A program made the position numbers and the translations under genes. Below are positions 4,089 through 7,034 of a stretch of 7,316 nt of DNA, piece by piece (position 1 is the stretch's first letter; every line of letters begins with the position of its first letter). The notes under the pieces were generated by a model. It worked only from the letters and a program-made list of their open reading frames with translations. It searched no databases and had not been told where the DNA came from. Source of the stretch: a virus (taxonomy: Duplodnaviria > Heunggongvirae > Uroviricota > Caudoviricetes); the IMG/VR virus record IMGVR_UViG_2778261350_000002. One strand, written 5' to 3'.

Positions 4089-7034
4089 ATGACAGACATT
4101 ACAGCCAATGTTGTAGTGAGTATGCCTTCGCAACTCTTCACTATGGCTCGTTCTTTTAAAGCCGTAGCCAATGGCAAAATTTATATCGGTAAAATTGACA
4201 CTGACCCGGTAAATCCTGAAAACCAGATTCAGGTTTATGTAGATAACGAAGACGGTTCTCACATTCCTGTTTCGCAACCAATAATCATTAACGCTGCTGG
4301 ATATCCGGTATATAACGGACAGATTGCCAAATTCGTAACCGTGCAAGGCCATTCTATGGCTGTTTATGATGCGTATGGTACACAGCAGTTCTATTTTCCG
4401 AATGTGCTGAAGTATGATCCTGATCAGTTACGGCAGCAATTAGAAGACCCAGATGGAGCGAATAAATACCCAAAACTTCAGATAGCAAGATGGAGAGACA
4501 GTTATGATGTAAGAGGTTGGGGGGCTATTGGTGATGGTGTTCATGATGATACATCAGCTCTATCAGAATTACTTTCTGTTGCAACAGGTGGTGAAAAGAT
4601 AGATGGGCGAGGGCTTACTTTTAAAGTATCAACTCTTCCAGATGTCAGTCGATTTAAAAATGCTCGTTTTTTATTTGAGAGAATACCGGGTCAGCCTCTT
4701 TTTTATGCTTCTGAAGATTTTATCCAAGGAGAGTTATTTAAAATTACAGATACACCGTGGTACAACGCCTGGACGCAGGATAAAACGTTTGTATATGACA
4801 ATGTCATCTATGCGCCTTTTATGGCTGGAGACCGCCATGGTGTAAATAACCTCCATGTTGCATGGGTTCGCTCAGGAGATGACGGGAAGACCTGGACAAC
4901 GCCGGAATGGCTTACAGATTTACATGAAAACTATCCCACAGTTAACTATCACTGCATGAGTATGGGGGTTGTCAGAAATCGCCTTTTTGCTGTAATTGAG
5001 ACGCGGACCGTGAGCGGAAATAAACTGCAGGTTGCAGAGTTGTGGGATCGCCCAATGAGTCGCAGCCTTCGCGTTTATGGTGGTATAACGAAAGCAGCAA
5101 ATCAGCAAGTCGCTTATATTCGCATTACTGATCACGGATTATTTGCTGGTGATTTTGTCAACTTCTCAAACTCTGGTGTTACAGGTGTTACCGGGAATAT
5201 GACGGTGACTACTGTCATTGATAAAAATACTTTTACAGTTACGACGCAAAATACCCAGGATGTGGATCAGAATAACGAGGGTAGATACTGGAGTTTTGGT
5301 ACATCATTTCACTCGTCACCATGGAGAAAAACCAGTCTTGGAACTATTCCTTCTTTTGTTGACGGAAGCACTCCTGTTACTGAGATTCACAGTTTTGCGA
5401 CGATTAGCGATAACAGTTTTGCTGTTGGCTACCATAATGGTGATATTGGTCCACGCGAGCTTGGGATACTCTATTTCTCTGATGCTTTCGGTTCTCCTGG
5501 TAGCTTTGTTCGCAGACGCATACCTGTAGAATATGAGGCGAATGCATCTGAGCCATGTGTAAAATATTATGATGGCATTCTGTATCTGACGACCAGGGGG
5601 ACATTAAGTACTCAACCCGGTAGTTCATTGCACAGAAGCTCTGATTTAGGTACATCATGGAATTCTCTTCGCTTCCCAAATAATGTTCATCACTCAAACC
5701 TTCCTTTTGCCAAAGTTGGCGATGAGCTGATTATTTTTGGCAGTGAGCGCGCATTTGGTGAGTGGGAAGGAGGAGAACCTGATAACCGTTATGCAGGAAA
5801 TTATCCAAGAACATTTATGACCAGAGTTAACGTCAATGAGTGGAGTCTGGATAATGTAGAGTGGGTTAATGTTACTGATCAGATTTATCAGGGCGGAATA
5901 GTTAACTCTGCGGTTGGTGTTGGTTCAGTTTGTATCAAAGACAACTGGCTGTACTACATTTTCGGTGGGGAAGACTTTCTAAACCCATGGAGCATAGGGG
6001 ATAACAACAGAAAATATCCTTATGTTCACGATGGTCACCCGGCTGATTTGTATTGTTTCAGGGTGAAAATTAAACAGGAAGAATTTGTTTCAAGGGATTT
6101 TGTCTACGGAGCCACTCCTAACAGAACGCTTCCTACTTTTATGTCGACGTCAGGCGTGAGGACGGTTCCTGTACCCGTTGATTTCACAGATGATGTTGCC
6201 GTCCAGTCACTGACTGTCCATGCCGGTACATCAGGACAAGTTCGCGCGGAAGTCAAACTTGAGGGTAATTACGCCATTATTGCGAAGAAAGTACCGTCTG
6301 ATGATGTTACCGCTCAGAGATTAATCGTTAGCGGCGGTGAAACAACATCTTCAGCAGATGGTGCAATGATAACGTTGCATGGTTCCGGAAGCAGTACTCC
6401 ACGTCGCGCGGTATATAACGCACTCGAACATCTTTTTGAGAACGGAGATGTTAAACCTTATCTTGATAATGTAAATGCTCTTGGTGGTCCGGGAAACAGG
6501 TTCTCGACAGTTTATCTTGGCTCCAATCCTGTGGTTACCAGTGACGGAACATTAAAGACAGAGCCGGTCTCTCCTGACGAAGCATTGCTGGATGCCTGGG
6601 GTGACGTCAGGTATATCGCTTATAAATGGCTGAACGCTGTCGCTATAAAGGGGGAAGAAGGGGCGAGGATACATCATGGTGTAATCGCGCAGCAACTTCG
6701 TGATGTTCTTATTTCTCACGGACTCATGGAAGAAGAAAGCACAACATGCCGCTATGCCTTTCTTTGCTATGACGATTATCCCGCAGTATATGATGACGTC
6801 ATTACTGGCCAAAGGGAAATGCCGCTGACTGATAATGACGGGAGCATCATTGTTGATGAGGATGATAATCCAGTGATGGTAATGGAAGACATCATTGAGC
6901 GCGTTGAAATAACGCCAGCAGGATCTAGATGGGGAGTCAGACCTGATCTCTTATTCTATATCGAGGCAGCATGGCAGCGCAGAGAAATAGAAAGAATAAA
7001 AGCTAGGTTAGACTTAATAGAAGGGAGGCACTAA
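4089..7034 (+). CDS. Tailspike protein, 981 aa: P22 gp9-type head-binding N-terminal domain fused to an endosialidase (endo-N-acetylneuraminidase) body and a C-terminal intramolecular chaperone (peptidase S74-type) domain
   Basis: ATG 4089 with GGAG 4077-4080 (8-nt spacer); stop TAA 7032-7034. The N-terminus [11 protein letters not shown]...[31 protein letters not shown]...[12 protein letters not shown]....NVLKYDPDQ matches the P22 tailspike head-binding domain from memory. Two Asp-box motifs (S-x-D-x-G-x-T/S-W): SGDDGKTW (nt 4872-4895, aa 262-269) and SSDLGTSW (nt 5637-5660, aa 517-524). The C-terminal ~160 aa begin at ...[11 protein letters not shown]..., the expected autocleavage Ser-Asp context. 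Confidence 0.85.

Follow-up and report, generated by a model that had tools for sequence, protein, structure and literature searches.

The open reading frame at positions 4089 to 7034 (plus strand) of the 7,316-nucleotide stretch of viral DNA analysed here (the window; IMG/VR record IMGVR_UViG_2778261350_000002) is, judged by its sequence, the siaK1-type endosialidase tailspike gene of a CUS-3-type P22-like prophage of E. coli K1. The last 164 residues of its product (aa 818 to 981) are very probably an intramolecular chaperone, which is predicted to release itself in the folded trimer by cutting the bond between Thr817 and Ser818. The gene is the already published and annotated siaK1 of CUS-3 and holds nothing new as a gene; nor are the chaperone and its self-cleavage new biology.

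In the ORF list, this frame (981 aa plus stop) is the sole long one covering positions 6531 to 7031, where an initial annotation had placed an autoproteolytic site and a releasable C-terminal chaperone domain. The codons AGT (6540 to 6542) and GAC (6543 to 6545) read directly as Ser818 and Asp819, the local peptide is ...LGSNPVVT-S818-D819-GTLKTEPVS..., and 163 residues follow Ser818 up to the protein end ...LIEGRH; on these coordinates, codons and residue numbers the initial annotation was correct. The best megablast match among phage records was Enterobacteria phage CUS-3, where the ORF falls under 'siaK1: endosialidase tailspike protein'. The protein is identical to CUS-3 SiaK1 (ABQ88383; CP000711) at 969/981 residues and to the tail fibre of vB_EcoP-720R6 at 979/981. 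Like CUS-3 siaK1 (endoNK1), the gene encodes 981 aa and has ant upstream and the neuO heptanucleotide VNTR downstream, and S818, K823, R804 and D793 are identical; two of the 12 substitutions between the proteins lie in the chaperone domain (A833T and R980K relative to CUS-3). The precursor mass computed from the sequence was 109.27 kDa, and a review (PMC5380687) gives 109 kDa for the precursor. A literature search on endoNK1 and the CUS-3 tailspike returned a review table only. The CUS-3 record marks the endosialidase activity of siaK1 as directly assayed (PMID 16689790 cited in the record). At least 80% of the tailspike gene was present in 181 of the 5426 complete E. coli genomes. We also considered a decayed prophage gene and rejected it, because the reading frame is unbroken and shares 99% identity with phages that are functional.

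The neighbouring genes fit a P22-like late and immI region with synteny to CUS-3. Ahead of the tailspike gene lie a DNA-transfer gene, of which the 3' part is present (27 to 1106), an Arc/Mnt repressor gene on the minus strand (2317 to 2580) and Ant (2987 to 3988). The immI region upstream is unlike that of CUS-3: the segment at 1131 to 2327 contains three small ORFs absent from CUS-3. Downstream, neuO begins at 7189 to 7250, where its start and AAGACTC repeat are located, and a terminator scan between the tailspike gene and neuO found none. The end of the window (7251 to 7316) is A-rich, has no match and resembles an assembly artefact.

The Pfam domains of the tailspike follow the order Head_binding, End_N_terminal, End_beta_propel (with End_beta_barrel inserted), End_tail_spike and Peptidase_S74, all on the plus strand; no NCBIfam model matches the tailspike. 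The P22-type head-binding domain for virion attachment (aa 1 to 113; 4089 to 4427; PF09008, E 6.4e-66) also matches the N-terminal domains of the P22, Sf6 and HK620 tailspikes in the PDB. The endosialidase N-terminal extension and catalytic beta-propeller (aa 146 to 662; 4524 to 6074) were recognized by PF12218, PF12217 and PF12195, with End_N_terminal at aa 146 to 212, End_beta_propel at 213 to 662 (PF12217, E 3.1e-233) and End_beta_barrel inserted in the propeller at 324 to 406 (5058 to 5306). The triple-beta-helix stalk (aa 663 to 817; 6075 to 6539) matches PF12219 (End_tail_spike), and Thr817 is its last residue and the predicted mature C-terminus. The endoNF structures 1V0E and 3GVL align to aa 145 to 817 with E = 0. 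On this domain content the protein is assigned to the phage endosialidases (GH58), having a predicted six-bladed beta-propeller with an inserted beta-barrel and a beta-helical stalk homologous to endoNF. It likewise classifies as a P22-like (Lederbergvirus) tailspike by its predicted gp9-type head-binding domain and by the place of the gene, which follows ant and closes the late operon. The polysialic acid site in the stalk of endoNF, which we take to be R837, S848 and Q853, maps to R744, S755 and Met760 here, the first two being conserved.

Directly adjoining the stalk, Peptidase_S74 (PF13884) matches aa 818 to 878 with 41.5 bits (E 1.6e-10; cutoff 22 bits) over profile positions 1 to 57 of 58, and profile position 1 is Ser818. 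The C-terminal intramolecular chaperone and autoprocessing domain, which starts at this residue and runs to the stop codon (164 aa; 6540 to 7031), has a computed mass of 18.72 kDa and a pI of 4.5. Among the 147 representatives described below, the length from this Ser to the C-terminus ranges from 116 to 242 residues, with a median of 149. The precursor structure 3GW6 (endoNF S911A, chaperone domain included) aligns to aa 698 to 978 with E 1.1e-94, and a query of aa 788 to 981 alone matched it with E 4.5e-66. The chaperone fragment was also matched by GA-1 gp12 (3GUD, E 7.7e-11), by three other tail spike or fibre structures and by the C-terminal end of phrog_1171 (E 1.2e-75). An AlphaFold2 prediction for aa 698 to 981, run without an alignment, gave a mean pLDDT of 38, too low to be of use; the chaperone fold of 3GW6 is implied here by the 57% identity. 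Within the domain we recognize a long 'tentacle' beta-hairpin insertion (aa 885 to 942; 6741 to 6914), the equivalent of endoNF T977-H1026, and a C-terminal helix (about aa 948 to 978; 6930 to 7022) that aligns to the terminal helix of 3GW6, 3GUD and 9VVR and is predicted to form a trimeric coiled coil. By every criterion that can be tested on sequence, aa 818 to 981 are a CIMCD/ICA (Peptidase_S74) domain. The same C-terminal module is named 'the intramolecular chaperone of endosialidase' in the paper on phage vB_EcoP_ZX5 (PMC9782041).

The similarity to the family goes well past what chance would give, and conservation of the residues around the site was assessed in two ways. Exhaustive searching of 1.84 billion cluster representatives with phmmer yielded 5108 relatives at E<=1e-3, and columns were counted in the 147 sequences that cover the site among the best 150 of the 5108, all with less than 50% mutual identity. 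In this sample of the best 150 of 5108, T-S-D-x-x-x-K was present in 135/147 representatives; the Ser818 column was Ser in 142/147 and Cys in 4, the Lys823 column Lys in 146/147, the Thr817 column Thr in 143/147, the Asp793 column Asp in 138/141 and the Arg804 column Arg in 139/146. Cys thus replaces the Ser nucleophile naturally in some members of the family. Leu occupies the Leu822 column in just 6/147 of the same representatives (best 150 of 5108), Glu being usual. Of the S-D-x-x-L-K context proposed in the initial annotation, the Leu is not a family feature; the family context is T-S-D-x-x-x-K.

The second alignment contained the tailspike and 13 diverse phage C-termini found by tblastn, among them those of K1F, a phi92-like myovirus, a Kagunavirus siphovirus, K1-5 gp46, Pseudomonas phage pf16, Salmonella phage Vi II-E1, and Klebsiella, Serratia and Vibrio phages. 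In these 14 sequences Lys823, His862, Gly864, Gln868 and Gly878 are invariant (14/14), Ser818, Thr817 and Asp819 are each conserved in 13/14, and Arg804 and Asp793 each in 12/14. A separate homologue search with aa 788 to 981 gave 3 matches, two of which were fragments of the same gene. The stalk residues Asp793 (6465 to 6467) and Arg804 (6498 to 6500), identified by mapping to K1F and by conservation, lie at −24 and −13 from Thr817, the same spacing as D886 and R897 of K1F and D1239 and R1250 of T5. What is established here comprises sequence, domain architecture, homology and the conservation of these residues.

The catalytic dyad motif S818-D-G-T-L-K823 (6540 to 6557, with Lys823 at 6555 to 6557) was located by alignment to S911 and K916 of endoNF. 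In the pairwise alignment with wild-type K1F, S911, N912, K916, R897, D886 and G956 correspond to S818, D819, K823, R804, D793 and G864, and in 3GW6 the engineered Ala911 falls on Ser818 and Lys916 on Lys823. This complete conservation of the mechanistic residues, together with 57% domain identity (86/152) to a solved and biochemically characterised relative, is why we read the domain as self-releasing. The initial annotation had proposed a chaperone domain that, after trimer folding, frees itself at a conserved Ser, and homology and the mechanistic residues support that proposal.

The domain might instead be homologous to CIMCD and yet stay attached to the mature tailspike, where it could, for instance, serve in distal binding or stabilisation; cleavage of this tailspike is predicted, and some authors give receptor-recognition roles to the C-terminal domains of receptor-binding proteins (PMC5380687). 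We consider this very improbable, given that the autoproteolysis residues S818, K823, R804, D793, T817 and G864 are all intact, that the domain is 57% identical to that of endoNF, which is cleaved, and that the uncleaved form of the T5 fibre cannot compete for receptor (PMC4690869). Even smaller is the chance that what matters in 6531 to 7031 is some other feature, such as an RNA element or a minus-strand gene. An 86-aa ORF is present on the minus strand at 6552 to 6812, but it falls in none of the Pfam or PHROG families, the CUS-3 and 720R6 records annotate no gene there, and it is the plus-strand frame that is kept at the protein level across thousands of relatives. We regard the minus-strand ORF as a chance ORF.

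With release of the chaperone as the preferred reading, the side of Ser818 on which the chain would be cut was considered from the homologues. The cut most likely precedes Ser, at Thr817|Ser818 (ACC AGT, 6537 to 6542), because the cuts of T5 pb1 and MyRF and the chain ends of mature endoNF all precede Ser. The mature endoNF chains in the PDB (1V0E and 3GVL) stop at Thr910, the counterpart of Thr817 in the alignment. The initial annotation had placed the cut after Ser, at Ser818-Asp819, which would give a spike of 818 aa and a fragment of 163 aa. Early endosialidase literature speaks of cleavage 'at' the serine, which can be counted in favour of such a cut. Phi29 gp12 has also been modelled with the Ser retained (PMC4690869). 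Against this, T5 pb1 is cut at Thr1263-Ser1264, so that Ser departs as part of the chaperone, 'the same ... for the K1F tailspike', and the mature T5 fibre has no density for the Ser (PMC4690869). MyRF was cut between P586 and S587 according to mass spectrometry, S587 being the equivalent of endoNF S911 (PMC8326128), and MYRF 1:577 co-migrates with the natural N-fragment, S578 being the catalytic Ser (PMC3742443). The first residue of the Pfam S74 model is also the Ser, and mature endoNF stops one residue earlier. A cut C-terminal of Ser818 is thus unlikely, and the bond in the initial annotation was probably off by one residue. With the cut at Thr817|Ser818, the mature spike is predicted to have 817 aa (90.57 kDa), not the 818 aa first proposed, and the released domain 164 aa (18.72 kDa).

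According to published work, the ICA/CIMCD aids folding and trimerisation and then senses folding and cleaves itself, the cut being made by a Ser-Lys dyad with an oxyanion-stabilising Arg that is positioned in the folded trimer only (PMC3742443). T5 pb1 retains all the residues of the endoNF mechanism, with Arg1250 of the neighbouring subunit lying between Asp1239 and Thr1263 (PMC4690869). In MyRF, S587 and K592 correspond to endoNF S911 and K916, and cleavage is lost in the S587A and K592A mutants; in endoNF the key trigger is a triple beta-helix residue, Arg897 (PMC8326128). A coiled-coil role of the terminal helix has been described for T5, MyRF and endoNF (PMC3742443, PMC4690869, PMC8326128). 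PMC3742443 cites the long loop for its part in the folding of endosialidases, and the tentacles are described in PMC8326128.

For the tailspike studied here we infer cleavage, the exact bond and the functional consequences by homology to endoNF of phage K1F, T5 pb1 and MyRF, as follows. Three C-terminal helices would join as a coiled coil and nucleate trimerisation, and the tentacles (aa 885 to 942) would clamp the three chains while the stalk (aa 663 to 817) folds. Arg804 from the neighbouring chain, held by Asp793, would reach the kinked Thr817-Ser818 bond solely in the correct trimer, and may so act as folding sensor and oxyanion stabiliser. Lys823 would then activate the hydroxyl group of Ser818, and the chain would be cut at Thr817|Ser818. 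This would free the 164-aa (18.7 kDa) domain and leave a kinetically stable spike of 817 aa (90.6 kDa per chain), which would attach to the P22-like virion via its N-terminal head-binding domain.

Like endoNF of K1F, the tailspike has the catalytic propeller, the stalk and the chaperone domain, and the two differ in the N-terminal adaptor, which is T7-like in K1F and P22-like here. At residue 819 the tailspike has Asp, the family norm, in contrast to Asn912 of K1F, whose motif is S-N-G-E-R-K, and its tentacle is 8 residues longer than that of endoNF. Kinetics could therefore differ between the two. Domain release reportedly confers processivity on endoNF with polysialic acid, going by the title of a 2009 work of Schwarzer et al. 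T5 pb1 and GA-1 gp12 (3GUD) belong to the same fold family and use the same Ser-Lys-Arg-Asp-Thr mechanism, but share about 18-30% identity, have shorter tentacles and carry unrelated upstream receptor-binding domains. The ICA of MYRF/MrfA is homologous too, with the same S-x4-K dyad and a self-cleavage that depends on trimerisation and falls on the N-terminal side of the Ser. However, the MYRF domain stays on the ER membrane and frees a transcription factor, whereas the tailspike domain is predicted to be discarded from the virion protein, and MYRF has neither the long tentacle nor the stalk Arg sensor. The epsilon15-like phage vB_EcoP_ZX5 shares the catalytic-plus-chaperone module with the tailspike at 99.5% nucleotide identity.

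Because of Asp819, the longer tentacle and a module shared by P22-like and epsilon15-like temperate podoviruses, the CUS-3-type domain might have properties beyond those of endoNF, for example in cleavage kinetics, bond choice or a function that the released acidic 18.7-kDa trimer would have in K1 lysogen lysates. We think this very improbable, and nothing in the analysis points to extra properties of the CUS-3-type chaperone domain. Conceptually the finding adds nothing, the mechanism being known from biochemical and structural work on endoNF, T5 pb1, GA-1 gp12 and MYRF; what it usefully yields is a predicted bond placed one residue earlier and a revised motif. For annotation, the mature virion tailspike of CUS-3-type prophages would be residues 1 to 817, at about 90.6 kDa a chain, in place of the 109-kDa precursor. 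When endosialidase reagents or engineered spikes of this type are made recombinantly, aa 818 to 981 would have to stay in the protein while it is expressed.

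The tailspike gene (ORF 4089-7034, plus strand) encodes a catalytic propeller, stalk and chaperone module that is 99.5% identical at the nucleotide level to that of phage vB_EcoP_ZX5 (window 4610-7002; L016 503-3622). vB_EcoP_ZX5 is a temperate Uetakevirus (epsilon15-like), whose 1039-aa tail fibre carries an N-terminal adaptor unlike that of the window's tailspike. The downstream breakpoint of the identity falls within the terminal helix of the tailspike, and the final ~13 residues of the two proteins therefore differ at several positions. This pattern of sequence identity indicates that podoviruses of unrelated lineages have recently exchanged the module.

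Upstream, three small ORFs of 181, 117 and 123 aa are located on the minus strand at 1131-2327, flanked by the DNA-transfer gene on one side and the Arc/Mnt repressor gene on the other. CUS-3 lacks all three, and no complete E. coli genome contained 80% or more of the window as a single uninterrupted segment. Of the three products, that of 117 aa matched phrog_6324 and gave a weak hit to a holin family, the one of 123 aa, rich in Cys, matched phrog_4293, and the one of 181 aa had no match; PADLOC returned nothing convincing for these ORFs. Variable 'moron' slots are typical of the immI region in P22-like phages, and the segment is one of them.

The other end of the window (7189-7316) contains the start of neuO, with its ATG at 7189. 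The start codon is followed by the phase-variable VNTR, in which seven perfect copies of the heptanucleotide AAGACTC (7194-7242) precede one AAGAATC. Every phage and E. coli match to the window stopped at 7250, and the sequence from 7251 to the end degenerates into A-rich, low-complexity DNA in which a 7-nt periodicity is only faintly visible. This tail probably arose as an artefact of reads or assembly where a contig ended inside the repeat, so that neither the true AAGACTC copy number nor the on/off phase of neuO can be read from the window.

In at least one complete genome, that of E. coli MS20654 (NZ_CP082083.1), the annotation shows the tailspike homologue as a split gene, and the matching region includes an IS3-family transposase. 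The tailspike locus of this genome thus exemplifies prophage decay.

Antisense to the sequence that encodes the chaperone domain, the minus strand has an ORF of 86 aa (6552-6812). It belongs to no Pfam or PHROG family, is unannotated in related records, and was judged to be a chance ORF.

Within the chaperone domain itself, Cys replaces the nucleophilic Ser and the Lys is kept (T-C-D-x-x-x-K) in one of the 14 aligned phage proteins, the tail protein of Serratia phage vB_SmaA_3M (C-terminus, L012), and in four (P0015, P0031, P0032 and P0036) of the 147 cluster representatives covering the site among the best 150 of 5108. These alignments suggest that natural Cys-nucleophile variants of the self-cleaving chaperone domain exist.
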